Shown here: positions 27,349 through 54,907 of the stretch, piece after piece
How positions within the stretch are numbered: position 1 is the stretch's first letter
Layout: the number at the start of each line of letters is the position of its first letter
NCBI GenBank assembly: GCA_963752255.1
Contig: CAVVXT010000005.1
Span: 42,168-106,167 of the forward strand
Reading direction: 5' to 3'
DNA length: 64,000 nt
Source of the DNA: Nitrososphaeria archaeon
GTDB taxonomy: Archaea; Thermoproteota; Nitrososphaeria; JACIWG01
Notes under the pieces: model-generated
Seen by the model: the letters and a program-made list of their open reading frames with translations, nothing else
Database searches by the model: none
What the model was told of the DNA's origin: nothing
Made by a program: the position numbers and the translations under genes

Positions 27349-29107
27349 TCGAAAAAAATTCCCTCAACAATATATTATATCTGGATCTTACTAGGAAGCG
27401 CTTCTGGATCGACGAGCGAAGGGATCTTTTCGAAGAATATCTGGGCGGTATAGGTGTGGCTTCAAAGCTTCTCATTGGAGAATGCGCCCAAGGGGTGGAC
27501 CCACTTTCTCCAGAAAAATGTCATAGTGTTTGCTGTAGGTCCCCTTAATGGTTTGTTCCCCCTCGACATCGAAGACTGTCAGCTGCTTTAAATCTCCTCT
27601 TACAAAAAATTATGGAGAAAGTCATGCTGGAGGAAGGAGCTCCATAGCCATCAGACTCGCGGGCTATGGTGCTATTGTGATAAAAGGTGCAAGTGACTAT
27701 CCTATCTATATCTCTATTCATGGAAAGAATGTGAACTTCAGGGATGCTTCGGCGTTGTGGGGTGTTAGAAGTAGCATAACTGTTGGGAGAGTTTTAAGGA
27801 ATGTTGAAGAAGGTGCGGGCATCCGCACTATTATGCGAATAGGTGGAGCTGGAGAAAATCTTGTATCCTATGCTTCTGTTAATACCGAAACCTATCGCCA
27901 TTTTGGGCGATTAGGTTTAGGAGCTGTGTTTGGTAGCAAGAAGTTGAAGGCACTCGTGATTTCTGGGAAGACTACGGTTCCTGTATCTGACAAGAGACTT
28001 TACAGGGAAGTCTATGATAAGATTTATGATGCTGCGACAAAATCTCCTGTTATGAAAAAGTATCATGATTTAGGAACTGCTTCGAATATTAATCCATTGA
28101 ATGTTATGAAGGCTCTACCAACAAAAAATCTTAAGGAATCTTACTTTGATTCTGCTGAAAGAATTTCTGGCGAATATTTGGCTGAAAAATATCTTGGGCG
28201 TCGCACCGCTTGTGCACACTGTCCTGTTGCATGTATACATCTTGCTGCCTTAAGGGAGCCTTATGCTAATGAACCATACTTTTATAAGACAACCATGACA
28301 TCATATGATTACGAACTTCTTTATTCGCTTGGATCTATGTTAGGTGTTGACGATACAGAGGCTGTCCTTAAGCTCATTAATGAAGTTGAAATATGGGGGC
28401 TTGATGCCATGATGGTTGGAACTGTTCTTTCTTGGATAACCGAAGCCTTCGAAAGAGGAATCATCAACGAAGATCAGACGATGGGACTTAAGGTAAAATG
28501 GGGTGTCGACGACGAATATGCTAAGGCAATAAGGTACATCGTCACACAGCCGAACGACTTCTACAAGATAGCGGCAAAGGGTCTACAGAGTCTAGTGGAA
28601 CAATATGGTGGAGATAATTTTGCTTTGACTTATGGTGGAAATGGAATGCCAGGATACCATACTGGGCCAGCTGCACACCTAACATACATTACTGGTGCCA
28701 GACATAGTCATCTTGACAGTGCAGGTTATAGTCTAGACCAAGAAGGCTTGAAGAAAGGCCTGCCTTCAGTCAAAGAACTGGTAACAGATCTGTATCTTGA
28801 AGAATCCTGGAGACAGATCCTATCAAGTCTTGTTGTTTGCTTTTTTTCACGAGGACTTTACACTCCTCAACTGGTTTCGGAAGCGCTAAAGGTTGCAGGA
28901 TCAAGCCTATCTGAAGAGGACCTAAACAAGCTCGGCAAGAAGATTCTCGGGAACAAGAACCATTTCAAGGAACAAGAGGGCTTTAACATGTTAGCCTTAA
29001 AGTTTCCGAGAAGGATATTTGATCTACCAACACCACATGGTACACTAGATGAACAGCAACTCAAAGAAGCCGTAGCACTCTATTACTCCCTCCTTTATAA
29101 TACGTGA
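27345..29107 (+). CDS. aor: Tungsten-type aldehyde:ferredoxin oxidoreductase family, frameshifted near 27515-27565
   Basis: KSPLT, GRLGLGAVFGSKKLKA, CAHCPVAC, DYE, GLDAM. Confidence 0.85.
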
Positions 29108-30926: not shown

Positions 30927-31000
30927 GGGCCTGTAGCTCAGCCAGGTAGAGCATCGGACTTTTAATCCGAGGGTCGAGGGTCCGAATCCCCCCAGGCCCG
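30927..31000 (+). tRNA. tRNA-Lys(UUU)
   Basis: Acceptor stem GGGCCTG/CAGGCCC, D-arm GCTC/GAGC, anticodon arm TCGGA-CT-TTT-AA-TCCGA, T-arm GAGGG-TCCGAAT-CCCCC; no intron. Confidence 0.95.
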
Positions 31001-31003
31001 CCT
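30983..31003 (+). repeat. att core (attL), 21 bp, at the tRNA 3' end
   Basis: CGAATCCCCCCAGGCCCGCCT, identical to 53519-53539. Confidence 0.92.
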
Positions 31004-31058: not shown

Positions 31059-32459
31059 TTGGTTAGGAGGAGTCCCTATCTGGGGCTTTTTGATGATGTG
31101 GAAGTGAGGAGGTGGTTTGAGAATCTGGAACGGGGCAGTCCCATAACTTCACGAGTGTATAGGAGGAGGCTGGGCTTTTTCTGCGGGCATTATGGTGTTA
31201 CGCCGAAGGAGCTGGCATCGAAGGATGTTAGGGAGATTGAGAATATGATCCAGGACTTCTTTTCCTTCTTGGAAGGGAAGGGTAGGGCCCCGGGTCTCCT
31301 GTTGAGCTATAAGAAGGCTGTTAGGTCGTGGTGTGAGTGGAGCGGTAAGCTTCTTCAGAGGAGGATCAAGGTCAAGGATTCGGGCAGGACACCCACATTA
31401 GAGGGTGAAGTAATACCTACACAGGAGCAGCTACGCCAGACACTTTATTCGGATAGGACGCCGATCAGGACGAGGGTTGTAATCGCGCTCATGGCTTTTT
31501 CGGGGCTAAGGTTTCAGAGCATGGGCAACTTTGACGGCTCTGACGGTCTAAAGGTTGGCGATATGCCTGAACTTGTTGTCGAGGACGGTAGGGTGACGCT
31601 TAAAAGAATCCCAGCCGAGATAATAGTGAGACCTAACCTGAACAAGGCTAGGCACAGATATGTAACCTTCTTGAACGAAGAAGGCTGTAGGCTCGTCGAG
31701 GAGTATCTGAATAGGCGCTTAAATTCTGGTGAGAAGATAGATCAGGACACGCCAGTGATAGCTACATCGAAGTTTTATGACGCAAGAGGTAAGCCTAGCA
31801 GCAAACCGAGTAACGGGAGTGTGAAGTCTATGACGAGCGACAAGATAAGGGATAATGTTAGAGAAGCTTTAAGAGACTTAGGATTCAGGTGGCGGCCCTA
31901 CATATTCAGAAGCTTCTTCGACACACAGCTCATGCTCGCTGATAGCAGGGGGAAGATCAGCCACGCCTACCAGCAGTTCTGGATGGGACATAAAGGTGAC
32001 ATGGAGGCGGTATACACTACAAATAAGGGTAGATTGTCTGAGGACGTTGTCAAGGATATGAGAGACGCGTACATGAGATGTGATGAATACCTCTCCATAA
32101 AGCCAAGTGCAAGACAGGAGGATCCTGAGCTTACAACCATAAGAACTATGGTGGAAAGCGGCGTTTTGGACCTATCTAAGTCTACTGTAAGAAACTATCT
32201 GATTCAGAAGCTGGGTATACAGGACATGGAGGTTAAGGTTGCTAGTATGAAGGAGTCAGGATATGCCGAAGATGACGCCAACGTTAGAGTGATCTGTGGT
32301 GAGCTGGGCATCGAGCCGATGAAGATCGAAGCATTCAAACCCAAGAATAACGACGATCCAAAGAAGGTCGTATGCGAAGATGAACTGGAGCGTTATCTTG
32401 CGGAGGGATGGGACGTCCAAACTATGCTGCCGAGCGGGAAGATATTGATCAGAAAGTAA
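31059..32459 (+). CDS. int: Tyrosine recombinase/integrase 1
   Basis: SGLR, KARH, YIFR, FWMGH, catalytic Y in AVYTT; next to the att/tRNA. Confidence 0.9.
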   Translation: MVRRSPYLGLFDDVEVRRWFENLERGSPITSRVYRRRLGFFCGHYGVTPKELASKDVREIENMIQDFFSFLEGKGRAPGLLLSYKKAVRSWCEWSGKLLQRRIKVKDSGRTPTLEGEVIPTQEQLRQTLYSDRTPIRTRVVIALMAFSGLRFQSMGNFDGSDGLKVGDMPELVVEDGRVTLKRIPAEIIVRPNLNKARHRYVTFLNEEGCRLVEEYLNRRLNSGEKIDQDTPVIATSKFYDARGKPSSKPSNGSVKSMTSDKIRDNVREALRDLGFRWRPYIFRSFFDTQLMLADSRGKISHAYQQFWMGHKGDMEAVYTTNKGRLSEDVVKDMRDAYMRCDEYLSIKPSARQEDPELTTIRTMVESGVLDLSKSTVRNYLIQKLGIQDMEVKVASMKESGYAEDDANVRVICGELGIEPMKIEAFKPKNNDDPKKVVCEDELERYLAEGWDVQTMLPSGKILIRK

Positions 32460-38901: not shown

Positions 38902-39099
38902 TTATTCCTGTCTTACGATTTTCGCTCTTTCGTGGAGGTTGCGCTGGATTTCTTCTATTCTCAGCCTGACCGCTTCTTTGACGAACTCGCTTCTTGAAGT
39001 GTAGCCTAGTTCAGCGTGTTTTATGATCTCGTCTGCCATGTTAAGTAGATCCTCTGGCAGCTGTACTGTTTTCCAGCCGCGTTTTTGAGCATGTTCCAT
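38902..39099 (-). CDS. CopG/NikR-type RHH regulator
   Basis: TVQLPEDLL...GYTSRSEFVKEAVR. Confidence 0.85.
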   Translation of the reverse strand: MEHAQKRGWKTVQLPEDLLNMADEIIKHAELGYTSRSEFVKEAVRLRIEEIQRNLHERAKIVRQE

Positions 39100-39183
39100 G
39101 GTTCTTCCCTTGATTCTTATGATATGTATGCGATAAGCTTATATATGTTTTTAGGTTAACCATAACATTATCATGTGATATGA

Positions 39184-39495
39184 ATGAGATATAGGGGTGT
39201 ACAACTTCCAGAAGGTTTAGCGGAAAGGGTTAGACATCTTATTACCGAGCATAAGGAGCTCGGATACGCGAGCGTGAAGGAATTTGTCCAAGATTCCGTG
39301 AGAAGAAGGGTTGAGCAGACAGAAAAACTCATGGAATATGAAATGCATGATATAGGAGAGGCTGCCAAAAATTTTGGCCACCAGTCACTTCAGCAGCGTG
39401 ATAAGGCTTCTCAAGCGGCTTCTAACAGCACTGATGTCCCAAATAATGACAGGCAGGCCAGCTCCTTAAGCCCCACAGAACATTGTGAAATGTGA
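39184..39495 (+). CDS. CopG-type RHH regulator with C-terminal extension
   Basis: GVQLPEGLA...GYASVKEFVQDSVR. Confidence 0.8.
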   Translation: MRYRGVQLPEGLAERVRHLITEHKELGYASVKEFVQDSVRRRVEQTEKLMEYEMHDIGEAAKNFGHQSLQQRDKASQAASNSTDVPNNDRQASSLSPTEHCEM

Positions 39496-40274
39496 GGGAG
39501 AAGGTCATGTTGACACAAGTGATTGGGCTAGGAGTAGTAGGAAAGGCTCAAGCGTTTCTACTAAGCAAACTAGGACATAAGGTCTACGGCTACGACATAC
39601 GAGCAGTTCAACCAGAACAGTACTTCACATTATGCAATGACCCCATCCAAGACGTTGACATTTCATTTATTTGCACACCTGAAAATGCCGCTAATGAGGT
39701 TATTGAGAAGTTGAAACATTATGGCGTGAAAGGTTTAATTGTCATAAAGAGTACGGTTCCAGTTGGCACAATTAACTGTTTAATGAAAGATTTTGATATT
39801 CATATTTGTTATAATCCTGAGTTTCTAAGAGGGAAGTGTTCTTTTGAGGATGTGCTCAACCCTAGGAGAATAGTTATTGGTGAATGTTGCAGTGAACACG
39901 GAAACATTCTTAAACAAATCTACAAGCCTCTGGGTCAACCGATATATCGGACAGATCCAACGACAGGTGAATTAATCAAACTTGTTTCAAACAGCTTACG
40001 GGCGGTTAACATAAGTTTTTGGAATCAACTCTACCTTTTATGCAGACAAGTTGATGCCGATATAAAAATTGTTGCTGAAGCTGCTGATTCTGGCAAAGTG
40101 TTAGGAGAATGGGAAGGCGGGAAATGGGGCACAAAACGGTTTGGTGAGCCTTACGATGGTAAGTGTCTGGATAAAGATTTAGACCATTTATTTAAAGCAT
40201 TTTGTGAGTGCGGTGTTGATCCTTCAATCTTAGAAGCTACTAAAAAGTTTAATGAGCAGTTGAAGGAGATGTAG
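39492..40274 (+). CDS. Short UDP-glucose/GDP-mannose dehydrogenase family protein (HasB-like)
   Basis: VIGLGVVG, IKSTVPVG, NPEFLRG, ELIKLVSN, catalytic GKCLDKD; lacks the C-terminal UDP-binding domain. Confidence 0.85.
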   Translation: MREKVMLTQVIGLGVVGKAQAFLLSKLGHKVYGYDIRAVQPEQYFTLCNDPIQDVDISFICTPENAANEVIEKLKHYGVKGLIVIKSTVPVGTINCLMKDFDIHICYNPEFLRGKCSFEDVLNPRRIVIGECCSEHGNILKQIYKPLGQPIYRTDPTTGELIKLVSNSLRAVNISFWNQLYLLCRQVDADIKIVAEAADSGKVLGEWEGGKWGTKRFGEPYDGKCLDKDLDHLFKAFCECGVDPSILEATKKFNEQLKEM

Positions 40275-40276
40275 AA

Positions 40277-41470
40277 ATGATAGTAGAAATACTTGAATTT
40301 TTGAGGATGCTTGAAACAGGGGAGATATATTGGCTCCCCTTTCACCTCCTAATATTCATAGTCCTATCCCTTAGCCTTAGAGACTTCCTCGCAAATAGGC
40401 ATAAACCTTCTATCTACGCAGATGAAGATCCTCCTGTGAGCGTGATAATTCCAACATACAAGGAAAATCCAGATATACTTAGGAACTGTGTTAGAGCCGC
40501 CGCCAACGACAAACCGGAGGAAATAATAATCATACATGATGATGGACTGGATTCAGTGGAGCGGATAGGTAGAGAGTTCGGTGCGACTGTAATTTCATTT
40601 CCTAAAAGGGTTGGAAAGAGGAAAGCAATGGTTGAAGGGTGGAAACGAGCCAAATATGATATAATTGTGCACCTTGATGGGGACGAAATCGTTGAGAATG
40701 GATGTTTAGGAGAGCTGGTTAAACCCCTTCAAGACGCCAAAGTTGTAGGGGTAGGGGGTAGAAGTGTTGCCTATCTAAATACCCACCCCAACGGGCTCGG
40801 TAGTTGGATAGCTTGGAGGCTGAGCATATTACAGGAAATTAACAGAGGTTTCACGTGTAAAGCACTTAGACCGCATTTGGTAAATATAGATGGAAGGGTT
40901 AACGCGTGGAGAAGGAGCTTTCTGCTGAAGCACGAAAAAGATTTTCTTAACGATATGTTCATGGGAAAACGTTCAGATATAGGAGATGACAGGTACCTTA
41001 CGCAGGCGGCTAATCTCGAAGGCTGGAATACCACATATCAGGAATCGGCAATAGCGGGAACAGCCAGTCCAGCAAGTTTCAAAGACTATGTTAAACAACA
41101 GCTCCGCTGGACGAGAAGCGGATACAAGTTTTTCTATCTAGACATTAAAAGAGGATTGAGGAATGTGACATGGTTTTATTACCTATCTCAAGTGTTCTTT
41201 TATGGGGCGGCTGTCAGTTTCCTCTTTGCCATCATACATGACACCTTCTTGATTCCTCCGGTGTATGGGCTCTCATTGGGGACCTTACCTGTTGTAATGT
41301 TTCTTGGTTCCTCGCTAGTTGCGGTTATAGGAATGCTTTTCGCTGGGCGTAGGCAGGTTAAGTTAAGAGAGTTCCTATGCTTTGGTCTAATTGGGGTTTT
41401 GGTGATGTTTCCCACCACACTCTATGCGATGTTTACTGTGCGGAAACAGTCAACTTGGGGAACAAGATGA
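40277..41470 (+). CDS. Processive GT2, class-I hyaluronan-synthase-like
   Basis: DDG, GKRKA, DGD, IGDDRYLT, QQLRW, C-terminal WGTR and TM helices. Confidence 0.8.
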   Translation: MIVEILEFLRMLETGEIYWLPFHLLIFIVLSLSLRDFLANRHKPSIYADEDPPVSVIIPTYKENPDILRNCVRAAANDKPEEIIIIHDDGLDSVERIGREFGATVISFPKRVGKRKAMVEGWKRAKYDIIVHLDGDEIVENGCLGELVKPLQDAKVVGVGGRSVAYLNTHPNGLGSWIAWRLSILQEINRGFTCKALRPHLVNIDGRVNAWRRSFLLKHEKDFLNDMFMGKRSDIGDDRYLTQAANLEGWNTTYQESAIAGTASPASFKDYVKQQLRWTRSGYKFFYLDIKRGLRNVTWFYYLSQVFFYGAAVSFLFAIIHDTFLIPPVYGLSLGTLPVVMFLGSSLVAVIGMLFAGRRQVKLREFLCFGLIGVLVMFPTTLYAMFTVRKQSTWGTR

Positions 41471-42042
41471 AAGTAAAAAGAATCTTAGGTGCAACAATTT
41501 TCTCAATAGGTCTTGTATTAGCAGCATTCGTCTTTATCGTCGTCCAAGTCTTGACCTCTTACCCATTCCACATTTATTTACTGCCTGCCATATCTTTTTC
41601 TCTGCCCATGGGAACTGACAAAGTATTCGGAGCCCTCGCATACGATCAATTGCTGGAAATTGGGGTTGGGTTAGCGTTTATCGGACTATTCATTTGGGGA
41701 GTTTCAAAGTTTGGAAAGATCAATCGAAACGCGATCACCTACGCTTTAGGGTTTACATCGTTTGTTACGGGAAGTATAGGGGCAGTTGTCGTTTATGCAG
41801 ACGCTATCCTTCCTTGGTCTGTTTTTCCGTGGTTTGGAGTTACAGATGGTGGAGGCTATCCTTGGATCACAGAGCGAGTGACGTCTAACACCGGTTTCAT
41901 GAAAATGCCAAGCTATACGCCGAGAGACCCAAATGTTTACTTCCTGAATTACGCCGAAGTGTTGGTTATTTCTGTTTTGCTGGCAATTTTAGGTTTCGTT
42001 CTATATAAAAAGGTAGATCGTGAACACGATGAAGTGGTATAA
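41467..42042 (+). CDS. Hypothetical membrane protein (about 4 TM)
   Basis: ATG overlaps the GT2 stop (ATGA); hydrophobic helices. Confidence 0.65.
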   Translation: MKVKRILGATIFSIGLVLAAFVFIVVQVLTSYPFHIYLLPAISFSLPMGTDKVFGALAYDQLLEIGVGLAFIGLFIWGVSKFGKINRNAITYALGFTSFVTGSIGAVVVYADAILPWSVFPWFGVTDGGGYPWITERVTSNTGFMKMPSYTPRDPNVYFLNYAEVLVISVLLAILGFVLYKKVDREHDEVV

Positions 42043-42484: not shown

Positions 42485-45368
42485 ATGTCCACGAGATTGG
42501 TTTCTGAACCTGATTTTGTTGCGAATCGTCTTTTACCTAAGTTTAAGGAAGCAGCAGGCGTTCTCAATGTTCTAAGCCAGATTGACTATCATGTTGAGAA
42601 ACGCATTAATGGTGACCGGGCTGACCTGGTTGCAGAGAGGGCTGGTAAGGGCCTTTTTGTGTTAGAGGCCAAGTATAAGAAGAAAGTGGGTAATATAGAA
42701 AGGGATATAGAACCAAGGGATCCAGAAGTCGTCAAACAAGCAGCAAACTATGCGACACTTGGCGGCTATCTGTATTATGGAACATGTAATCTGAAAAGAA
42801 TAGTTCTTTTTCAAATGAAGCCTGGTGTCAAAGCATTTGAAAGTGAAGTAGCCTCCTTCGATTTTGATGAAAACCCAAAGTGGGCAGAGGATGTTCTAAA
42901 AATTGCCTTAGGTCTTGTTCCTGTCAAGGCTAAAGCGTTAGACGATTCGCTTGTAAGTGCTCTGCATGAAGCTTTCACAGACCTTTACATAGAATTTCTA
43001 TCTTCGTTAAGAGAAAGATTAAAGAATGAAGTGTTCAAATCCAGATTTGAAGATTGGTTTGGAAATCAAGGAATTGAATATGGCGAGGAAAATGTTAGGA
43101 AGGTTGCAGAAGAAACTACATATCTACAGATAAACAAATTACTTTTTTATTATGTCGTAAAGACAATTTATCCTGAAAGACTAAAGACCCTTGTTATAAA
43201 TGAGAATGATGATGTCTACGAAGTTCTTAATGGGTACTATGATGATGTGAAGAAAATAGATTATGCCCCTATATATCAAAATGATGTTATAAGTGAAATA
43301 CCTTTCACAGTAAGGACAAAAGAAAGGTTTAGAACTCTTGTAGATACTCTAAGTGAATACGATTTTACAAAGATGGAAAGTGACTTTCTTGGGCGAGTTT
43401 ATGAAAAACTGATTCCTCCACAGGAAAGGAAAAGGTTGGGCCAATTTTATACACCTCCTGAAATAGTTGATCTTATAGCAAAACTAACTATAATGGATAA
43501 AGAGGCAAAAGTTCTTGATCCAGCATGTGGTTCAGGCTCGTTTCTCGTTAGAGCATATCATAGATTAAGAGAACTAAATGGAATGCCAAGAGAAATATCT
43601 GGTCCTCTAACAGAAGAATTTCACAAAAGACTCATTGATCAAGTCTATGGTATAGACATAAACCAATTTCCAGCACACTTATCAGTTATAAATCTGGTTA
43701 TACAAAATCCAAAGGCCAAGATAGATACCGTAAATGTAGTTGTTAAAGATTTCTTTGATGTCAGGCCACGCCAGGTAACTTTCACAGGCTTCGACAGTAT
43801 GACAGCTGAAGGTGAAAAGACTATTATAAAAATGCCTTATACATTTGATGTTATAGTTGCTAATCCCCCGTATATACGCCAAGAACTGCTTGGGGATAAA
43901 GAGAAGGAGAAAATATTTAGTTTGATAGAGAAGGAATTTAAGGACAAAGTTTTCATAGGCAAGGCAGGAAGATCAGGGGCTATCTCATTAGATAGAACAA
44001 GTGATATCTACATCTTTTTCTATATTCATTCTATAAACTTCCTCAACAAAGGAGGAAAGCTCGGTTTCATATCTTCAAACAAATGGCTTGAAGTGGGATA
44101 CGGCGAATCATTTCAGGAATTTCTACTCCAAAACGTGAAAATATCCTTTATAATCGAATTTGACAGAGCCGTTTTCCCTGACGCTGAAGTAAATACGACG
44201 GTGACCATCCTTCAAAAGGAACCAGATTCCACGCAAAGGAACAACAACGTTGTTAGATTTGTTAGATTAAAGAAAAGAATGGACGTAACAGAATTGCAGG
44301 AACTATTAGAATTAGAGAAAGACATCGAGAACAGAAATGTGAGGCTTACAACCATTCAACAAAGATACCTTAATCCTGGCAAGTGGAATACATATCTCCG
44401 AGCACCTGTAGTATTCAAGAAGATCATTGAAAATACTAAAGTGCAATCTCTATCGGTAATCGCAGACGTTTTTAGGGGACCAACTACAGGCTACAATGAC
44501 TACTTTATTCTGTCAAAGGAAAAGGTAAAAGAATGGAATATAGAGCCAGAATTTTTGGTTCCTTGCATTTCATCACCTAAAAAAGTTAAAGGTTTAATCA
44601 TAGATCTTAAAGACATTACAGAATATTTTTTTGTATGTAGCAAACCGAAAGATGAACTTAAAGAAACAAATGCACTAAAATATGTAGAATTTGGCGAGCA
44701 TTTTGAAGTAGATGTAACACGTGGTTCGAAAAAAGGGAGAAAAAGACTACCTCAACTTGAAACTATTAAATCTCGCCAAATCTGGTATAATCTAAACAAG
44801 CCAAAGAATACACCAATACTTTTCCAATACATGATAGATGAAAAATCAAGAGCCTTCTTGGAATAAAGGAGGAGTGCATGCCCCAAACATCATGCATTAT
44901 GTGATACCTAAAAACTTGGGAGATGTTTTACCACTATTAGGCTATTTCAATTCATGCGTAGGCTCACTAATGGTCGAGTTATATGGCCGTTCATATGGCG
45001 GAGGAGTTCTTAAAATAGAAGTTTACGAACTCAAGGGCCTTCCAACAATAGATCCTACCTGCCTTAAAAAAGAAGAAAAAGCAAAAATAGGTAACGCCTT
45101 TTTAAAATTAGCAGAAGCGATAAATAAAAGGATTAAAGTAGAGAAAGAGTTAGAATCAGCAAAGTCAAAAACTGGAAAAGAGAAAGGCCTATTTGAAGGC
45201 GAAGCCAAACAAAGACTTGAATTAGCAATTGGAATTGAAAAGAAAAGTCAAAAGGAACTTGATAACCTTGTTTATAATGTCCTTGGGCTCTCAGAAAAGG
45301 AAAGATTACAGGTAGAAGAAGGGCTTACAGAATTGCAGGAACTACGAAAGTCACGAACTCAAGTATAA
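42485..45368 (+). CDS. Type IIG (Eco57I-like) restriction-modification fusion, frameshifted near 44858
   Basis: N-terminal RAD...LEAK...QAANYA nuclease, GQFYTP, VLDPACGSG, NPPY; C-terminal GRSYGGGVLKIEVYE in the next frame. Confidence 0.85.
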
Positions 45369-47895: not shown

Positions 47896-48480
47896 TAACT
47901 CCTAAAGCAGGAGCGTCTTTTCAAAGTTGATAGGTTTTTTAAATCTTGCTTTAGAGGGAAGATCCCCCTCCAGTTTAAGGCCTCGACAGCAGGGTGTAAA
48001 CTGCGAAATAGTGCAGGTTAAGGGTTTAAAGAGGGTTTAAACCGCTTGTCTGCCTGAGCTTGGAGTTATTTTAACAGGATTTCCACCTTAATTAATCGGG
48101 GAATCGAACAAGGTAAACTTGATCCACTAGTTAACTATCAATGCCTTTCCTTCAACTCCTTATACTAATGAGGTAATATCGATTGTTGTTGGTGGGTTAT
48201 TGGGAAAGTTCGATATATAGCCATATTAATTTTCTATGTATTATGCAATGTTTTAATCAAAGTGCGTTTACTCATCAAATGCTAAAGGGTGAACCGTTCC
48301 TCAAAGACTATTTACTACAGTATTCGTGGGTAACACAGATTTATGTCTACTATTATAGAGATGTATACCGCAAAAATATGAACGAGCTTGAGATAGATAG
48401 GCTTTCGAAGAAAACCATTCATCTATAATCTTATAAACCAGCATAGAGCAAGAATCTTTAGGCGTGTGCATCACCAATTG

Positions 48481-49524
48481 GTGAATCCAGAACATCTCAA
48501 GGTCGTGCTCGGAGGATGCAGTTCTATTGCAGAATGGAAGAAAATCCATCCAGACGAGAAACTAGATCTTGCTAACGTCAAACTTCCCTCAGCTGACCTT
48601 TATGAAGCTGATCTTTCTTATGCTGATCTTTCTTACGCTTATCTTTCTCTTGCTGATCTTTCTGTTGCTAATCTTACCGATGCTAATCTTTCCCACGCTG
48701 ATCTTTCTGTTGCTAATCTTACCGATGCTAATCTTTCCCACGCTGATCTTACCGATGCTGACCTTTCTGTTGCTAATCTTTCTTATGCTAATCTTTCGCA
48801 AGCTGTCCTTAAAGGAGCATCACTTTCAGAAACTAGTCTTGTTAGGACCAGTCTGGACGACGCGAATTTTTCTGAGGCAGTAATGGATGGTGCAATCTTG
48901 GCAGGTATCAATCTAGCCAAAGCTGATGGGCTTAAGGCAATTATTCACGGTGGGCCAAGTAGTGTAGGAGTAGACACAATGATAGAGTCTTTCCGCTCCG
49001 CAGGTAATCGTTTTACACCTGAATTGGAAGCCTTCTTTCTTGGTACGGGCGTGCCGAAAGAGCTTCTTGATAGTATTCCCAAAATCATAGGCGAAGTAAA
49101 GTATTGCCCTACTTATATTGCGTATGGGCAACCAGATGTTAATTTTGCAAGGAGATTGAAGTCTGACTTAACAACGAATGATGTCTCTTGCTGGCTATAT
49201 GACACCGACAAAACAGCTGGTGAGAGAACTTGGAAGGAAATTAGACATGAAATGCAAAGGGCTGAAAAGGTGATCGTACTCTGTTCTGCTAAAGCGTTAG
49301 TTAGAGATGGTTTGCTTAAAGAGATAGAGGAGCAGATAGACAGAGATCGGGACAAGCTAATTGCTGTTTCTTTAGACGACTTGTGGAAACAAGATGGGTT
49401 CCATGTAACGAGGGGAAGCAGGAACCTGAAGCCTGACCTTATGAATAAGAACTGGGTTGACTTTATTCACAACTCGACTTATGACCATTCCCTAAATGAA
49501 TTATTAAAGGGACTAAGAAGATAA
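48481..49524 (+). CDS. Pentapeptide-repeat plus TIR-domain protein
   Basis: A(D/N)LSx repeats, then YIAYGQPDVNFARRLKSDL...VSCW...KVIVLCS...LLKEIE...LIAVSLDD (TIR_2 pattern). Confidence 0.8.
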   Translation: MNPEHLKVVLGGCSSIAEWKKIHPDEKLDLANVKLPSADLYEADLSYADLSYAYLSLADLSVANLTDANLSHADLSVANLTDANLSHADLTDADLSVANLSYANLSQAVLKGASLSETSLVRTSLDDANFSEAVMDGAILAGINLAKADGLKAIIHGGPSSVGVDTMIESFRSAGNRFTPELEAFFLGTGVPKELLDSIPKIIGEVKYCPTYIAYGQPDVNFARRLKSDLTTNDVSCWLYDTDKTAGERTWKEIRHEMQRAEKVIVLCSAKALVRDGLLKEIEEQIDRDRDKLIAVSLDDLWKQDGFHVTRGSRNLKPDLMNKNWVDFIHNSTYDHSLNELLKGLRR

Positions 49525-49962
49525 ATAGTGAACAGAGATGTTTGCATATCAGGGACTCGAACCCATTTAAGTATTAGGATTAAGAAGTTTGAATACATCA
49601 TAAATCATAATATATTTTCAAATTGTTATTTTTTAGAATGTTTTGGAATGTCGTCAGATTAAAAGAAAGAATTCGGTCATAAAGCAAACATCGTAAACTT
49701 CTCCTCGTGCATAAATTCTGAGTTTTTCTCTGTCCATAAACGATAGATTTCTTTTCCTTTTTCTTCTTGGTCCTTTGGAACCAGTCCTTTTGTGTTTTTA
49801 ACAAGCAGTAAATTGGGTGTGACAACCAACGAAGTTGTTGCGCTTGAACGATAAATGATAACCAAATAAAAACATATTTAAACTATGTTAGTTGATTAAA
49901 TCATAACGTGGTAGAATTTAATGAATGATAGTAGAGGATTTTCTTCCGCTAACCCACTTATA

Positions 49963-51424
49963 ATGACGGAAAAACCCTCAAAAGAGATTTCAGACAGAAT
50001 GAGGAAGGTCAGAAGCAAGGGAACTAAGATCGAAAAGACGACGGAACTTTTGCTAAAACAGATTTTCCTCGAATATGAAAAACAACCAAAAATGATCGGA
50101 CACCCAGACTTCATATTAAAAACCGAAAAAATCGCTATTTTTTGTGACAGCGCTTTCTGGCATGGTCGGAGAACCAAGAAACAACATTTCAAACGTAATC
50201 GGCAATTTTGGGAACATAAGATCAAAGAAAACCGATTGAGAGACAGAAGGAACAACCAGACCCTATCGAAACTAGGTTGGAATGTATTGCGTTTTTGGGA
50301 TGAGGATATTCTCAAAAAACCAAGTTACGTTACTAGAACGATATTAAGACAAGTAAGTCCCCCTCCAGAAAAACGTCTAGCCGCAGTAGAATTGTTTTGT
50401 GGGGTTGGTGGAATGGCTCATGGTTTCTTCTTAGAAGGGATTGATGTAGTTGCAGGATTCGATGTAGACAAAACTTGCAAGTATGCTTTTGAGAAAAATA
50501 ATTCTACCACATTCATAGAGAAAAACGTTAGCATGTTAGGCGGCCAAGAAATCAAAAGGTTATACCCCAAAGAATCTGTTAAAATACTTGTGGGCTGTGC
50601 ACCGTGCCAACCGTTTTCCACCTACACAAACGCGAAGAAAGGAAACTCCGATAAATGGAAACTCCTTTACGAGTTCTCTCGAATAGTAAACGAAGTCCAT
50701 CCAGACATAGTTTCAATGGAAAATGTTCCCGGACTAATCTCATACGGAAAAGGTAAATTCTTTCAGGATTTCTTAGAAAATCTTAGGCAACAAGGTTATC
50801 ATGTATGGCATCACGTCATAAATTGCCCAGAATATGGAATTCCTCAAAGAAGACGGAGACTAGTTTTGCTGGCCTCTTTATTCGGTGACATAAACATAAT
50901 CCAAAAAACACACCCTGCTGGGAAATACTCTGACAGTACGTGATGCAATCGGAGATTTAGAGCCTATATCCGCAGGAAGCTCAAGCATCAAAGACCCATT
51001 ACACAGAGCTCGAAATCTTACCCCTAAGAACATGCTTAGAATAAGGTCAACTCCCCAAGGTGGAGACTGGAGTTCTTGGCCAAAAGAATTGATGCTTGAA
51101 TGCCACAAAAAAGACAGTGGAAAATCCTTTGGCAGTGTATACGGAAGAATGAGTTGGGATGAGCTCAGTCCAACCATTACTACTGAATTTATCGGTCTTG
51201 GCAACGGCAGATTCGGTCATCCTGTGCAGGATCGTGCAATATCTCTAAGGGAAGCTGCGCTTTTACAAACTTTTCCAGTGTACTATGACTTTCTTGATCC
51301 TAATGCGGCATTCTGTTCAAGAAGAATCGCTCAGCATATAGGCAATGCAGTTCCGGTTAGGTTGGGACAAGTGATAGCGGAAAGCATTAAACAACATGTG
51401 AGGGGATTTGATGGAAAACAGTGA
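49963..51424 (+). CDS. Vsr endonuclease fused to a C5-cytosine DNA methyltransferase, frameshifted near 50928
   Basis: Vsr: PDF...IFCDSAFWHG...GWNVLRFW; MTase: ELFCGVGG, APCQ, ENV, PQRRRR, REAALLQTFP, IGNAVP. Confidence 0.85.
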
Positions 51425-53387
51425 AAAATACACACTTACGATTAGCTTGAACGTTCTTGAAAGCTTGGGTATAAACCTGTATAGTAACGTTCCAGCAGTT
51501 CTCTCAGAAGTCGTTGCAAATTCTTGGGATGCAGACGCAGAAGAAGTAAGAATAACGTTGAATACTCAACTTGGCGAAATTACCATCGAAGACAACGGAA
51601 AAGGTATGACCGCACGAGATATGAACGAAAAATATTTGAAAGTGGGTTATCACAGACGGGAATACGAAGAAACGCTTACTCCAAAACATATGCGTCACGT
51701 CTTTGGAAGAAAGGGAATAGGAAAACTTGCTTTATTTTCTATTGCAAACAAAGTGGAGGTACAAAGCGTAAAAGAAAATAACGAAGTTTTGGAAAAAAGT
51801 GGTTTCATCATGGACGCTCACGATATAGAGGAGCATATCAAACGGGAAAGTGGCCAAAACCCTGACAAAAATCGATCATCTGATTATCATCCTATTGCAG
51901 TTGATCCAGAGAAGATCACCTTTGATAAGGGAACTAAAATCATTCTGAAGGAATTGAAGAAAGAAATATTCAATCTCGGCAGCGCTTTGAAAAGAAGGTT
52001 GGCAAGACGCTTCAGTATAATAGGAGAAGAACATGATTTCGCGGTTTTCGTTGATGGTCAACAAATCACGGTAGATGATAGAGATTATTTGAAAAAGCTT
52101 CAATACATCTGGTTAATAGGCGGAGAAAATGAGGATCTTCTCAAAGATTGTAAAAACTTGATACAACATGGAAAAATTGATGGGTTAATTGACGAAAAAG
52201 AAGATTACAAAGTAACTGGATGGGTTGGCACTTTAGACGAACAAAAAAGCGTAGAAGAAGGTAGCAATACCGTCGTTGTCTATGCTTGGGGAAAACTCAT
52301 TCATGAGGATATTTTGAAAGACGTAAAAGAAGGAGGCGTGTTTTCTAAGTATCTCATTGGCGAACTTCGTGCAGACTTTCTTGATTACGATGGAAAACCA
52401 GACATCTCAACCACTGGTCGTCAAATGGTCAAGGAAGATGATGTTCGCTTTATTATACTCAAGAATTTCTTTAGGGAAAAAATTCTATCTGCAATCCATT
52501 CAAAATGGGAACCTTGGCGCAAAGAAATTGCTGTAAAAAAGGCGCTTGAAAATGAAAAAATCAAAGAATGGTTTGAAACTCTGTCGCCTGATAAGAAAAA
52601 GTTTGCTGAAACCCTTTTTGCCAAGATTGAGTCAATTCCAGTTTCTAATCCCGATAGCAAGAAGGAGCTTTACAAACACGGAATAATTGCGTTCGAAACG
52701 CTAGCTCTCAAAGATAGACTTAGCGTACTTAATGAAATTAAATCAGATAAAGAGTTCCAAGTACTTCAAACAATAATGGGTCAAATTGATTCTCTAGAAG
52801 CGATTCTTTACTCAGATATCGTAAGAGGAAGAATTACCGTTCTTACAAAATTTGCTAGTATCGCAACTAGCGAAAAAGAAAAGATAATTCAAAAATACCT
52901 ATTTGAACATTTATGGTTACTTGATTCTTCATGGGAAAGAGCTAGTACAAACCAGCGGATGGAGGAAACTTTTAAAAAGGAGTTCAAGGCTGTAAAGTTT
53001 ACAGAAGAAGAAAAGAAGGCACGGATCGATATTCGATACAAAACTGCGGCAGGAAAACATATAATAATAGAACTAAAGAAATATGATGCAAAAGTAAGTA
53101 TTTCAGTTCTTTCTAGGCAGGTACAGAAGTATAAACTCATTCTTCAAAGATGTTTGAGAAAAGTATTTTTAAATACGCAGCAACCGCCATTCGAAATAAT
53201 ATGTGTTCTCGGATCTTGCCCAACCCCTCAAGAAGATGATGAAGCTAACCGGAGGTCACTAGGCGTACATAATGCTAGATATGTTACATATGATAGTCTG
53301 ATTAATGATGCGATGGAAGGGTACAAAAGTTACCTTGATAAGGAAAAGGAAGTCGAACGGATAAGAACGCTAATAAAAGATTTATGA
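51408..53387 (+). CDS. GHKL(MORC)-ATPase plus PD-(D/E)xK nuclease, HgiDII/BbrUII-like restriction endonuclease
   Basis: EVVANSWDA, DNGKGM, GRKGIGK, RIDI...IIELK; overlaps the MTase end. Confidence 0.8.
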   Translation: MMENSEKYTLTISLNVLESLGINLYSNVPAVLSEVVANSWDADAEEVRITLNTQLGEITIEDNGKGMTARDMNEKYLKVGYHRREYEETLTPKHMRHVFGRKGIGKLALFSIANKVEVQSVKENNEVLEKSGFIMDAHDIEEHIKRESGQNPDKNRSSDYHPIAVDPEKITFDKGTKIILKELKKEIFNLGSALKRRLARRFSIIGEEHDFAVFVDGQQITVDDRDYLKKLQYIWLIGGENEDLLKDCKNLIQHGKIDGLIDEKEDYKVTGWVGTLDEQKSVEEGSNTVVVYAWGKLIHEDILKDVKEGGVFSKYLIGELRADFLDYDGKPDISTTGRQMVKEDDVRFIILKNFFREKILSAIHSKWEPWRKEIAVKKALENEKIKEWFETLSPDKKKFAETLFAKIESIPVSNPDSKKELYKHGIIAFETLALKDRLSVLNEIKSDKEFQVLQTIMGQIDSLEAILYSDIVRGRITVLTKFASIATSEKEKIIQKYLFEHLWLLDSSWERASTNQRMEETFKKEFKAVKFTEEEKKARIDIRYKTAAGKHIIIELKKYDAKVSISVLSRQVQKYKLILQRCLRKVFLNTQQPPFEIICVLGSCPTPQEDDEANRRSLGVHNARYVTYDSLINDAMEGYKSYLDKEKEVERIRTLIKDL

Positions 53388-53518: not shown

Positions 53519-53539
53519 CGAATCCCCCCAGGCCCGCCT
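53519..53539 (+). repeat. att core (attR of element 1 and left junction of element 2)
   Basis: Exact copy of the tRNA-Lys 3' sequence 30983-31003. Confidence 0.92.
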
Positions 53540-53593
53540 ACAATTAAGTGCGAATACTTTATTTAGCAGGTATTAGATAGTAGACTTGAGGAA

Positions 53594-54907
53594 ATGCCGC
53601 ACGCTGAAAATTCAAAATACGATAGTATCTTACCTGACGTGAAATGGTGGCTTGATAACATAGAGCGCGGAAGCCCGCTCACAGCCGAAGTTGCACTCAG
53701 AAGGCTTGGAAGGGCATGCGAACTGCTACAACTTACTCCAAAGGAAATGGTTGCGCGCGCAAGAGAAGATCTTAAAACATTCCAAGACAGCCTTGAAGAC
53801 CTTGTAAGCAGACTCGAACGGGAGAATAAGGCACCCCAATATATAGCTGGAATACTCAAGAACATACGCTCATGGCTAAGATACAAGGATATTACACTTA
53901 CTCGCAAGATCAAGATTAGGAACGCCTCGTCTACGCCGACCATAGAAGACGAGCAGGTGCCATCACAAGAAGAGTTAGCGAGAATATTCAGAAATTCTTC
54001 GAGCAGAGCAAGATTAGCGGAAGCGTTGATGGCGTTCGCGGACCTAAGACCTGAATCAATTGGGAACTATAACGGTTCTGACGGACTAAAATTAGGCGAC
54101 CTACCTGAGGTGAAGATTGAAAAAGAACAAATTATGTTCGAAAAGACACCAACCATGATAGTAGTAAAATCTTCTTTGAGTAAGGCACGACATAAGTACT
54201 TCACTTTCCTGCCAACAGAAGGTTGCACCTACTTGAAAGAGTATCTTGAAGAGAGGATCAGAATAAAAGAAGAGTTAACTCCCAACAGTCCACTGATTAC
54301 ACATGAGAGAGCCGATGCTGAAACCAAGCCATTCATGCTAACGAGAAAGACAACTGAACTTATTAGGAAAGCAATGCGGAAGGCAGGTGTGCGCAAGAGA
54401 CCTTATGTTCTCAGAGCGTATGCTGAAACACAGCTGATCATCGCGGAGTCCAAAGGGAAGATTTCTCATCCCTATCTTCAATTCATTGCTGGACATAAGG
54501 GAGACATTGAAGCAAGATATTCTACGAACAAAGGTAGACTGCCACCGGACATGATCGAGGACATAAGGGAAGCGTATAGGCGATGTGAGCCGTTTCTCTC
54601 CACAGTCGCTCAACCGACAGAGCAGATGACGATAATCAAGGAAGCAAAGATCGAAGCATTAAAGAGCATAGCGAAGACGATGTTCGGAATAGACCTTCTC
54701 GAGGTGAAGGTAGCGAAGGAGAATGAAGAAAGCAGGGAGCTGACACAAGATGAAACAATCGAGCTGTTCGAGTCTGAAATGAAGAAGACGAGAGAGCAGC
54801 CTGACCCGCAGGTAATAGTTGAAGAGAAAGAGCTCGAATCCTACCTCAAAGATGGATGGCAGTTCGTCAGCGTTCTGCCGAGCCGAAGAGTCCTAATAAG
54901 AAAGTAG
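53594..54907 (+). CDS. int: Tyrosine recombinase/integrase 2 (paralog of integrase 1)
   Basis: ADLR, SDGLKLGD, KARHKY, YVLR, FIAGHKGD, ARYSTNKG; same C-terminal GW...LPS...IRK tail as integrase 1. Confidence 0.9.
   Translation: MPHAENSKYDSILPDVKWWLDNIERGSPLTAEVALRRLGRACELLQLTPKEMVARAREDLKTFQDSLEDLVSRLERENKAPQYIAGILKNIRSWLRYKDITLTRKIKIRNASSTPTIEDEQVPSQEELARIFRNSSSRARLAEALMAFADLRPESIGNYNGSDGLKLGDLPEVKIEKEQIMFEKTPTMIVVKSSLSKARHKYFTFLPTEGCTYLKEYLEERIRIKEELTPNSPLITHERADAETKPFMLTRKTTELIRKAMRKAGVRKRPYVLRAYAETQLIIAESKGKISHPYLQFIAGHKGDIEARYSTNKGRLPPDMIEDIREAYRRCEPFLSTVAQPTEQMTIIKEAKIEALKSIAKTMFGIDLLEVKVAKENEESRELTQDETIELFESEMKKTREQPDPQVIVEEKELESYLKDGWQFVSVLPSRRVLIRK

Follow-up and report, generated by a model that had tools for sequence, protein, structure and literature searches.

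A mobile archaeal gene pair joining a hyaluronan synthase/NodC-superfamily membrane synthase to a short UDP-glucose dehydrogenase-family enzyme, a candidate acidic-glycan cassette

Does a four-gene block on an archaeal mobile element encode a hyaluronan system, or another glycan pathway assembled from similar parts? The block lies in a 64,000-nucleotide stretch (the window) of contig CAVVXT010000005.1, from a Nitrososphaeria-class metagenome-assembled genome (MAG; 2.1 Mb, 94.7% complete). We confirmed four co-directional open reading frames (ORFs) at 39184-42042, encoding in order a ribbon-helix-helix (RHH)-like protein, a dehydrogenase of the UDP-glucose dehydrogenase (UGDH) family, a membrane glycosyltransferase of family 2 (GT2) and a small membrane protein. 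A first-pass annotation had read them as an operon for a hyaluronan or glycosaminoglycan coat. The four genes and the GT2 motifs that it quoted can be read directly from the ORFs and their translations. Hyaluronan as the product is unsupported: the GT2 belongs to a separate clade, its switch loop reads IDGR and the dehydrogenase lacks a UDP-binding domain. With confidence only slightly better than even, we propose a mobile cassette for an acidic, uronic-acid-containing beta-glycan or oligosaccharide, made by a synthase-dependent route at the host membrane.

The GT2 carries the motifs GKRKA, DGD, FMGKRSDIGDDRYLT, QQLRWTRS and IDGR and ends in STWGTR. It falls in Pfam GT2 families as a single GT-A module with DxD, GDD, QxxRW and the GKR lysine. 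This motif set had been taken to mark hyaluronan synthases (HAS), and that claim failed: NodC and its relatives carry GKR, DSD, G(E/D)DRxLT and QQLRW, and NodC-clade relatives also end in WGTR. The best curated family in NCBIfam was in fact NodC (TIGR04242; 129.5 bits, cut-off 550), with residues 43-397 aligned to positions 39-394 of 395. NodC was also the best tblastn match among plasmids (126 bits, 27.5% identity), ahead of Bacillus HasA (114 bits, 26%), and the protein has a NodC-like architecture with one N-terminal helix. These matches are what would be expected of a NodC-like or chitin-type enzyme making only N-acetylglucosamine (GlcNAc) oligomers or polymer, with the dehydrogenase acting elsewhere or on the finished oligomer. 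We judge such an activity distinctly improbable. The score is far under the cut-off, and a genuine Bacillus HasA, used as a control, reached 209.9 bits on that model, which was also its best family; the NodC match of the GT2 is therefore not diagnostic. The GT2 also has no nodA, nodB or nodIJ-like neighbors, its neighbors being the RHH, dehydrogenase and transmembrane (TM) proteins, and both the tree and the gene neighborhoods described below separate it from NodC.

Among solved structures, the best sequence matches were the Chlorella virus HAS (CvHAS; 64.8 bits, E 5.4e-17) and Xenopus HAS1 (61.7 bits), and DPMS matched only weakly (27.9 bits). The AlphaFold2 model of the GT2 (predicted local distance difference test [pLDDT] 94.1) has one N-terminal TM helix (19-41), a GT-A domain and four long C-terminal helices, giving model helices at 268-292, 299-324, 334-356 and 363-386 in addition to the first. 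Compared with the Protein Data Bank (PDB), CvHAS and Xenopus laevis HAS1 were the best matches (query-normalized TM-score [TMq] 0.57-0.75 over ranks 1-13, E down to 2.8e-19); cellulose synthases came after them, and chitin synthase matched much less well. On the strength of sequence and model, we assign the GT2 to the membrane synthases of the HAS/NodC superfamily, and it is probably membrane-embedded, processive and inverting.

When aligned by sequence to CvHAS, the GT2 keeps K114, D134/D136, G236-D237-D238-R239, R277-W278 and S281, which fall opposite CvHAS K177, D201/D203, G300-D-D-R303, R341-W342 and S345. One report describes CvHAS K177 and R341 as sandwiching the glucuronic acid (GlcA) carboxylate and the switch loop as lining the substrate-binding groove (PMC12987647). 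That loop is C-S-G-P in HasA, C-C-G-P in NodC and I-D-G-R in the window's GT2, where D205 and R207 are loop residues. The departure from CSGP, already pointed out in the first-pass annotation, is confirmed and extends as (V/I)-D-G-(R/K) across the subclade to which the GT2 belongs. Two related subclades have C-L-P-G-R or C-L-S-G-R, and the marker shared by the three is G-R as opposed to G-P. The helix following QQLRW also differs between the window's clade and HasA/NodC. The altered loop and its conserved basic residue could suit an acceptor unlike that of hyaluronan.

For the phylogeny, we combined search hits, locus-derived ORFs, three NodC proteins, HasA of Bacillus cereus biovar anthracis and Escherichia coli PgaC. 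Clustering of 219 sequences at 55% identity left 89 for a quick tree; a careful maximum-likelihood tree was built from 60 rows after removal of 29 from the outer clades and from redundant members of the window's clade. The two trees agree. The window's GT2 sits in a subclade of proteins of about 390-430 aa (support 100/100), which is nested in a larger clade (100/100, branch 0.77) together with a Nitrososphaeraceae-type and an actinobacterial/Chloroflexota-type subclade. A split supported at 98/94 sets this clade, the Bacillus HasA pair and P0163/P0164 apart from the NodC clade, the outer clades and PgaC. Support for HasA as the direct sister of this clade was only 36/0, and the GT2 falls within neither the HasA clade nor the NodC clade. 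The separate clade, with its own switch-loop signature, indicates a protein with a HAS-like fold that lies closer to HasA than to NodC, yet outside the HasA clade. The earlier designation as a HAS-type enzyme thus holds for the superfamily, the closest solved structures and the separation from NodC and PgaC, but not for membership of the HasA clade. We propose that, within the HAS/NodC superfamily, the G-R switch-loop clade is a sister group of bacterial HasA that has not been described before, with the direct sister relation at the 36/0 given above.

These placements bear on a true hyaluronan system, in which the GT2 would alternate GlcNAc and GlcA and the dehydrogenase would be a working HasB equivalent making UDP-GlcA. 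HAS proteins are the best structural and PDB-sequence matches of the GT2, its clade lies on the HasA side of the 98/94 split, it ends exactly at WGTR as Bacillus HasA does, and it shares with hasA-hasB and with the hasA-galU-UGDH locus of Bacillus the linkage to a gene of the UGDH family. We nevertheless consider hyaluronan quite unlikely. The GT2 is outside the HasA clade, with a long 100/100 branch between them and the weak sister support already noted; (V/I)DG(R/K) replaces C-S/V-G-P/G throughout the subclade; the GT2 shares 26% identity with HasA and 27.5% with NodC, and is no closer to HasA by this measure; and the dehydrogenase is without the UDP-binding domain. In addition, UDP-GlcA also serves GT2 synthases of other polymers, such as the cellubiuronic acid synthase of pneumococcal type 3.

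Close relatives of the GT2 are rare. Some GT2s of 56-60% identity sit on contigs of 31-108 kb. A word-based search returned five clusters including the window's own, and 44 representatives at E <= 1e-30 were found among 1.84 billion. No match above 31% identity was present in a one-genome-per-species set, and the best match among 400 other genomes of the class was 31% identical (E 6.3e-32), with short segments reaching 37%; none of the nine genomes of the same family (0/9) had a close relative. The G-R switch-loop clade also occurs in Nitrososphaeraceae, where 43 of 78 sample genomes had a GT2 match at E <= 1e-10, and in Streptomyces and other Actinomycetota. No close viral relative appeared in either an IMG/VR scan with the GT2 alignment (25 loci, best 26% identity) or records of cultured phages and archaeal viruses (GT2 best 26.4%, dehydrogenase best 32.8%). 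In soil genomes of the ammonia-oxidizer type (loci L113-L123 and L019), chromosomal GT2s of 416-503 aa belong to the same large clade and mostly stand divergent from a dehydrogenase of about 300 aa that lacks the C-terminal domain.

The partner enzyme had been described as a HasB-like UDP-glucose dehydrogenase. It is a UGDH-family protein and its pairing with a GT2 recurs widely, but it is not HasB-like: it contains PF03721 (partial) and PF00984, and PF03720 is absent. It scored 145.6 bits on TIGR03026, below the cut-off of 189.8. Scores on equivalog models were 86 bits for TuaD, 85.5 for AglM, 56.8 for UDP-ManNAc dehydrogenase and 15 for TviB, where UGDH equivalog cut-offs are 670-757; the region that is present scores closest to UDP-glucose 6-dehydrogenases. 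PDB alignments end at about residue 305-316 of UGDHs of about 445 aa, and about 30 residues of the N-terminal domain are missing as well. The AlphaFold2 model is compact (pLDDT 94.5), and Foldseek aligned it to UGDHs with a TMq of about 0.85 over roughly half of each target. In a 47-sequence alignment, G14, G17, D35, E160, K163, N167, C225 and P109 and F111 of the NPEF motif are invariant, and N108 and E110 of that motif and the L-P-K-D following the cysteine are nearly so. We take the invariant positions to be the NAD-binding and catalytic residues of UGDH. An insertion specific to the subgroup, G-E-W-E-G-G-x-W-G, lies just before the catalytic cysteine.

At 255-260 aa, against about 390-480 aa for solved UGDHs, and with its score under the TIGR03026 cut-off, the dehydrogenase might be taken for a decaying, truncated pseudogene beside a GT2 that alone matters. 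This is very improbable. The best 99 relatives listed (E <= 4.7e-39, 148-309 aa, 42-66% identity), several of them named from Bathyarchaeota MAGs, are all without PF03720, and the first full-length UGDH appears at E 5.7e-25. Together with the invariant catalytic residues, this marks a conserved short family and not a truncation. In a quick tree of 55 rows, the short forms (42 rows, 221-326 aa) grouped together, with a support of 90 in the Shimodaira-Hasegawa-like approximate likelihood ratio test, apart from full-length TuaD/HasB-type enzymes. The compact, confident model also speaks against decay, and the GT2 begins 2 nt after the dehydrogenase stop, which leaves no room for a lost domain. 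Two related genes deserve mention in their own right. On host contig 19 (186351-186992; L218:1513-2391), a second short UGDH-like gene encodes 293 aa, 43% identical to the element's protein, with no GT2 within 1.5 kb and neighbors without a Pfam family. In the closest metagenomic relative of the cassette (L124:3-730, on a 2.1-kb contig), the short dehydrogenase appears as two ORFs of 117 aa (open at the contig 5' end) and 116 aa, reflecting a frameshift or sequencing error.

We then considered what an enzyme reduced in this way could act on. In UGDH, the C-terminal Rossmann domain binds the UDP moiety (PMC3184952). If the short enzyme oxidized a lipid-linked sugar in place of a nucleotide sugar, the loss of that domain would be explained, and the pair might then make no polymer at all; its product could be a glycolipid or a modified sugar on a lipid carrier, such as a polyprenyl-phosphate hexuronate that serves the glycosylation of proteins or lipids. 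Retention of the catalytic residues alongside loss of the UDP-binding domain agrees with this idea, to which we assign a low probability. The GT2 has the full processive signature, with QQLRW on an interface helix, GDDR in the priming loop and WGTR as the gating motif at the C-terminus, and it superposes on HAS and BcsA and not on Dol-P-sugar synthases, DPMS reaching only the 27.9 bits given above. Gene neighborhoods speak to both sides of the question, as set out below. Within the host genome, the only full-length NDP-sugar dehydrogenase found scored 231.5 bits as a UDP-ManNAc dehydrogenase and 120.2 bits as a UGDH; with its own full-length enzyme of the former type, the host may need the element's dehydrogenase.

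To ask which genes travel together, we sampled 80 genome loci, 80 metagenome loci and 11 loci of class genomes around GT2 relatives and counted dehydrogenases within 2 kb. In the window's subclade, 8 of 17 loci have one, a short form directly upstream of the GT2 and often overlapping it stop to start; eight of the other nine have less than 1.2 kb of flank on at least one side. The Nitrososphaeraceae-type subclade has an adjacent dehydrogenase of about 300 aa, also without the C-terminal domain, in 16/19 loci. Among 87 actinobacterial-type loci, 27 have a dehydrogenase (23 full-length UGDHs, mostly divergent, 3 short and 1 partial). Elsewhere the counts were 8/36 for the outer clades and 1/2 for the HasA pair (the Bacillus locus). 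The NodC clade gave 0/14, with adequate flanks in only 4, in contrast to the recurrent pairing in the window's clade. Searching from the dehydrogenase side, we found a close relative in 5 of 400 other genomes of the phylum. All five abut a GT2-family gene, and two of these GT2s come from the window's clade (268 and 244 bits).

Conservation of the whole four-gene order, suggested earlier as a check, was not found. The RHH gene occurs in no other locus and the 4-TM gene in one (L138), where it is convergent to a GT2 of the same subclade. Because these two are not recurrent partners, the conserved unit is the dehydrogenase plus the GT2. Related cassettes have as neighbors MCM, ATP-dependent DNA ligase, integrases, transposases, TnpB, Mrr and many small ORFs, which fits frequent carriage on archaeal mobile elements. 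The same neighborhoods return us to the lipid-linked sugar. Two of the five short-dehydrogenase loci in other genomes pair with other GT2 types, and one of the two (L216) has a 290-aa GT2 together with a PMT_2-type transferase; PMT_2-type enzymes use lipid-phosphate sugar donors. Against this stand the 23 actinobacterial loci in which the same GT2 clade is paired with a full-length UGDH, an arrangement that points to a UDP-uronic acid donor. It is mainly this recurrent pairing with UGDH-family genes, full-length in Actinomycetota and short in archaea, that leads us to a uronic acid in the proposed acidic glycan.

Several observations weigh against that proposal. Without its UDP-binding domain, the dehydrogenase may not use UDP-glucose as a substrate at all, and no stand-alone PF03720 protein that could supply the domain in trans was found in the host genome, where PF03720 matched only the full-length C10 gene and one sub-threshold sequence (24.7 bits). 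The lysine and arginine that contact the GlcA carboxylate are also kept in NodC and its relatives and hence do not reveal the donor choice of the GT2. The GT2 is small, with a NodC/SeHAS-like architecture, and NodC is not known to export a polymer, so processive export by the GT2 is a prediction. The tree contains one named HAS, the HasA of Bacillus cereus biovar anthracis, and leaves out streptococcal, viral and vertebrate HAS and Cps3S. Two loci of the window's subclade (L133 and L139) have at least 1.6 kb upstream without a dehydrogenase, and 56 of the 87 actinobacterial-type loci, with adequate flanks, have none nearby; these loci indicate that the GT2 clade has no strict need of a linked dehydrogenase. 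Loci within a clade are also kin, so the pairing counts overstate independence. Finally, biochemical data on any member of the GT2 clade or the short-dehydrogenase family were not found in the literature searched, which left most subscription journals outside.

Taken together, we favor by a small margin over doubt an acidic-glycan cassette that would work as follows. An element integrated at a tRNA-Lys gene carries the two-enzyme cassette, which would be under RHH control. The dehydrogenase, as a minimal NAD-dependent sugar 6-dehydrogenase of the UGDH family, would supply or create the uronic acid. The GT2 would polymerize from UDP-sugars and possibly export the product, by a HAS/Cps3S-like route, and the outcome would be a remodeled host cell surface. 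The gene structure, retention of catalytic residues, clade placement, conserved pairing and mobility are observed, as are the folds of the models; the substrates, the polymer, its export and a biological role such as surface masking, biofilm formation or another fitness effect are suggested by them. Surface masking against viruses, raised in the first-pass annotation, is suggested only by the company of restriction-modification and TIR genes on the integrative element.

We also weighed a more far-reaching idea, which we regard as possible but rather unlikely. The dehydrogenase and G-R-clade GT2 would constitute a new type of acidic-glycan synthase with two components, a third line next to those of HasA and NodC, and archaeal mobile elements would spread the cassette to recoat their hosts. 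The dehydrogenase would have lost its nucleotide-binding domain for either of two causes: it acts while bound to the synthase, with the UDP-sugar held or channeled by the latter, or its substrate carries no nucleotide, as with a lipid-linked or nascent sugar. The switch-loop arginine of the GT2 would recognize the uronate at the acceptor end. Recoating would, for example, block superinfecting viruses, and Nitrososphaeraceae would have domesticated a chromosomal version.

Whichever chemistry applies, the principle of a synthase with a sugar dehydrogenase is familiar, and what is new is an uncharacterized synthase clade with a minimal dehydrogenase on an archaeal mobile element. Neither a paper on an archaeal HAS-like synthase nor a UGDH without the C-terminal domain turned up in the same literature, in agreement with the earlier remark that no archaeal HAS has been characterized. 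A 2018 review states that HAS homologues exist in Archaea and gives their activity as unknown (PMC6524685), and a 2023 review of HAS names streptococci, PBCV-1 and vertebrates as the only sources of class I enzymes and treats Cryptococcus and B. cereus as candidates (PMC10939387). With no HAS/NodC-type synthase from archaea characterized in the works searched, the cassette offers a compact two-gene entry to archaeal acidic polysaccharides. The short UGDH-like family poses a puzzle, with the catalytic residues kept and the nucleotide-holding domain gone, and solving it would mean either a new definition of the minimal UGDH or the discovery of another class of substrate. As the G-R clade is widespread in Nitrososphaeraceae and Actinomycetota, one assay would annotate many genes. 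The position of the cassette beside restriction-modification and TIR genes hints, in turn, at surface remodeling in conflicts among archaeal elements, hosts and viruses.

Feature coordinates are given in Table 1. Of the three junctions described earlier as translationally coupled, two are clear: an ATGA at 41467-41470 overlaps the GT2 stop with the start of the membrane-protein gene, and the dehydrogenase TAG ends at 40274 with the GT2 ATG at 40277, preceded about 8 nt upstream by GAAGGAG. At the third, the overlap of the RHH-like TGA (ending at 39495) with a GTG at 39492 is real, but the ATG at 39507, preceded by GGGAGAAGG, looks the likelier dehydrogenase start; the resulting 255-aa form is the version in the protein collection (P0006). 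Assignment of the first gene to the RHH proteins fits its 43% identity over 46 aa to the RHH_1-positive divergent neighbor and the match of both to phrog_38461, although it has no Pfam match of its own. Between these two genes, copies of a 21-nt repeat (39115-39135 and 39171-39191; 81% identical) flank the TATA-like palindrome AAGCTTATATATGTTT, and the second copy enters the RHH-like gene. The palindrome and repeats suggest a promoter with candidate operator sites at 39100-39183.

The small membrane protein belongs to no family in Pfam, NCBIfam, PHROGs or PADLOC. A word-based homology search returned only the protein itself, and an Atlas feature search gave only sub-threshold leads (best 0.87, recognition 1937). 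Its one homologue, in L138, is 34% identical over 122 aa and lies beside the same-subclade GT2 already mentioned. A 180-aa 4-TM ORF that follows the GT2 in L136 was considered as a relative and rejected, as no relation was detectable.

The earlier view that the block is cargo of an integrated element is borne out. A candidate integrase lies beside the tRNA-Lys gene, and perfect 21-bp direct repeats, CGAATCCCCCCAGGCCCGCCT, consist of the last 20 bases of that tRNA plus one more base and bound an element of 22.5 kb. In a genome of the same genus (G025), the left flank is 93% identical through the tRNA; beyond it lies about 1.1 kb of unrelated sequence, after which 46 bp match the attR region. 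The 22.5-kb element is therefore absent from that site there. An integrase by a tRNA gene, repeats duplicating the tRNA 3' end and a site without the element in a relative are the marks of a tRNA-integrated mobile element. No virion genes were seen in the element, and it is best called an integrative element with defense cargo.

Table 1. Coordinates of the cassette, its control region and other features of the integrated element in the window
Feature	Position	Strand	Details
RHH-like protein, first gene of co-directional block	39184..39495	+	103 aa; phrog_38461 E 1.6e-9
Short UGDH-family dehydrogenase	39492..40274	+	260 aa from GTG 39492; 255 aa from ATG 39507
Membrane GT2 synthase, HAS/NodC superfamily, G-R switch-loop clade (predicted)	40277..41470	+	397 aa; ends WGTR
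Small membrane protein, about 4 hydrophobic helices	41467..42042	+	191 aa; within ORF 41377-42042, internal ATG 41467
Divergent RHH regulator	38902..39099	-	65 aa; Pfam RHH_1 E 2.9e-4; phrog_38461 E 1.9e-12
Divergent control region between two RHH genes	39100..39183	.	84 bp; A+T palindrome, TATA-box-like
tRNA-Lys (UUU), integration target, 3' end = attL	30927..31002	+	ARAGORN; Rfam tRNA 67.3 bits
attL, 21-bp direct repeat	30983..31003	.	perfect repeat, 22,536 bp from partner
attR, 21-bp direct repeat	53519..53539	.	perfect copy of attL
Candidate integrase beside tRNA-Lys	31059..32459	+	466 aa; phrog_1 integrase E 1.3e-8; no Pfam match at 1e-3
Type IIG-like N6 methyltransferase	42485-44866, continued 44838-45368	+	793 aa + overlapping 176-aa ORF matching C-terminal part of same models
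Pentapeptide-TIR protein	48466-49524	+	352 aa; pentapeptide repeats + C-terminal TIR (TIR_2, ThsB_TIR)
Vsr/Dcm methylase over two ORFs	49921-50943, 51032-51424	+	340 aa (methylase profile 3-164) + 130 aa (222-323)
Type II restriction-enzyme-like GHKL ATPase	51408-53387	+	659 aa; phrog_6203 E 1.5e-159; PADLOC REase_II

The element also carries a winged-helix protein. Its type IIG-like methyltransferase is split, probably by a frameshift; the pentapeptide-TIR protein is a candidate defense gene; and the Vsr/Dcm feature is a fusion of a Vsr endonuclease and a Dcm cytosine methylase divided between two ORFs. Just beyond attR, at 53521-54907, is a 437-aa ORF without a family. The DNA of this segment, which starts within the att repeat, has an 87% match on another contig of G025 and five further partial matches there. 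The segment resembles a second unit, repeated or mobile, that directly adjoins the element. Outside the element, an aldehyde:ferredoxin oxidoreductase ORF (27548-29107) encodes 519 aa, compared with 586 aa in relatives of its >=90%-identity cluster. A 67-aa member of that cluster lies on the same contig. A frameshift, an in-frame stop or misassembly appears to have divided the gene close to its 5' end.

Set against known systems, the two enzymes of the cassette resemble several without matching any. NodC (TIGR04242) is the highest-scoring curated model, aligned end to end, and has comparable motifs and one N-terminal helix. It differs in its CCCGP, GEDR and W-L-S-R, and the GT2 is outside its clade, dehydrogenase-linked and without nod neighbors. 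The dehydrogenase shares with HasB, TuaD, AglM and Ugd the N-terminal Rossmann and central helical domains, the catalytic Cys, Lys, Asn and Asp and the NPEF motif; unlike them, it is without the whole C-terminal domain and about 30 residues of the N-terminal domain and has the extra G-E-W-E-G-G-x-W-G insertion.

CvHAS and vertebrate HAS (class I-NR) are the best solved-structure matches of the GT2, which keeps their catalytic residues and the lysine and arginine that contact UDP-GlcA. Identity in structural alignments is about 18%, the switch loop differs, and CvHAS (chain 570) runs about 110 residues past WGTR, where the window's GT2 ends. Chloroviruses carry a HAS together with a sugar-nucleotide enzyme and coat their host, and the element would be analogous in bringing a synthase and a sugar-nucleotide enzyme to its host.

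The HasA/HasB systems (Streptococcus hasABC and the pXO1-type hasACB of Bacillus cereus/anthracis) likewise have a single membrane-embedded GT2 with GKR, DxD, GDDRxLT, QQxRW and a C-terminal WGTR, similar in length (427 aa, against 397 for the window's GT2). In the 98/94 split, HasA falls with the window's GT2; it too is linked to a gene of the UGDH family and, in Bacillus, is carried by a mobile replicon. The window's GT2 differs from HasA in its separate 100/100 clade, IDGR for CSGP, 26% identity and archaeal host, and the Bacillus has locus encodes a full-length dehydrogenase of 443 aa, in contrast to one without the UDP-binding domain. A further parallel, drawn by description only, is the type 3 capsule of Streptococcus pneumoniae. 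There, Cps3S, a HAS-like GT2 encoded beside the UGDH Cps3D, uses UDP-GlcA and a second UDP-sugar to make cellubiuronic acid, which illustrates that a HAS-like synthase beside a UGDH can have a product other than hyaluronan.

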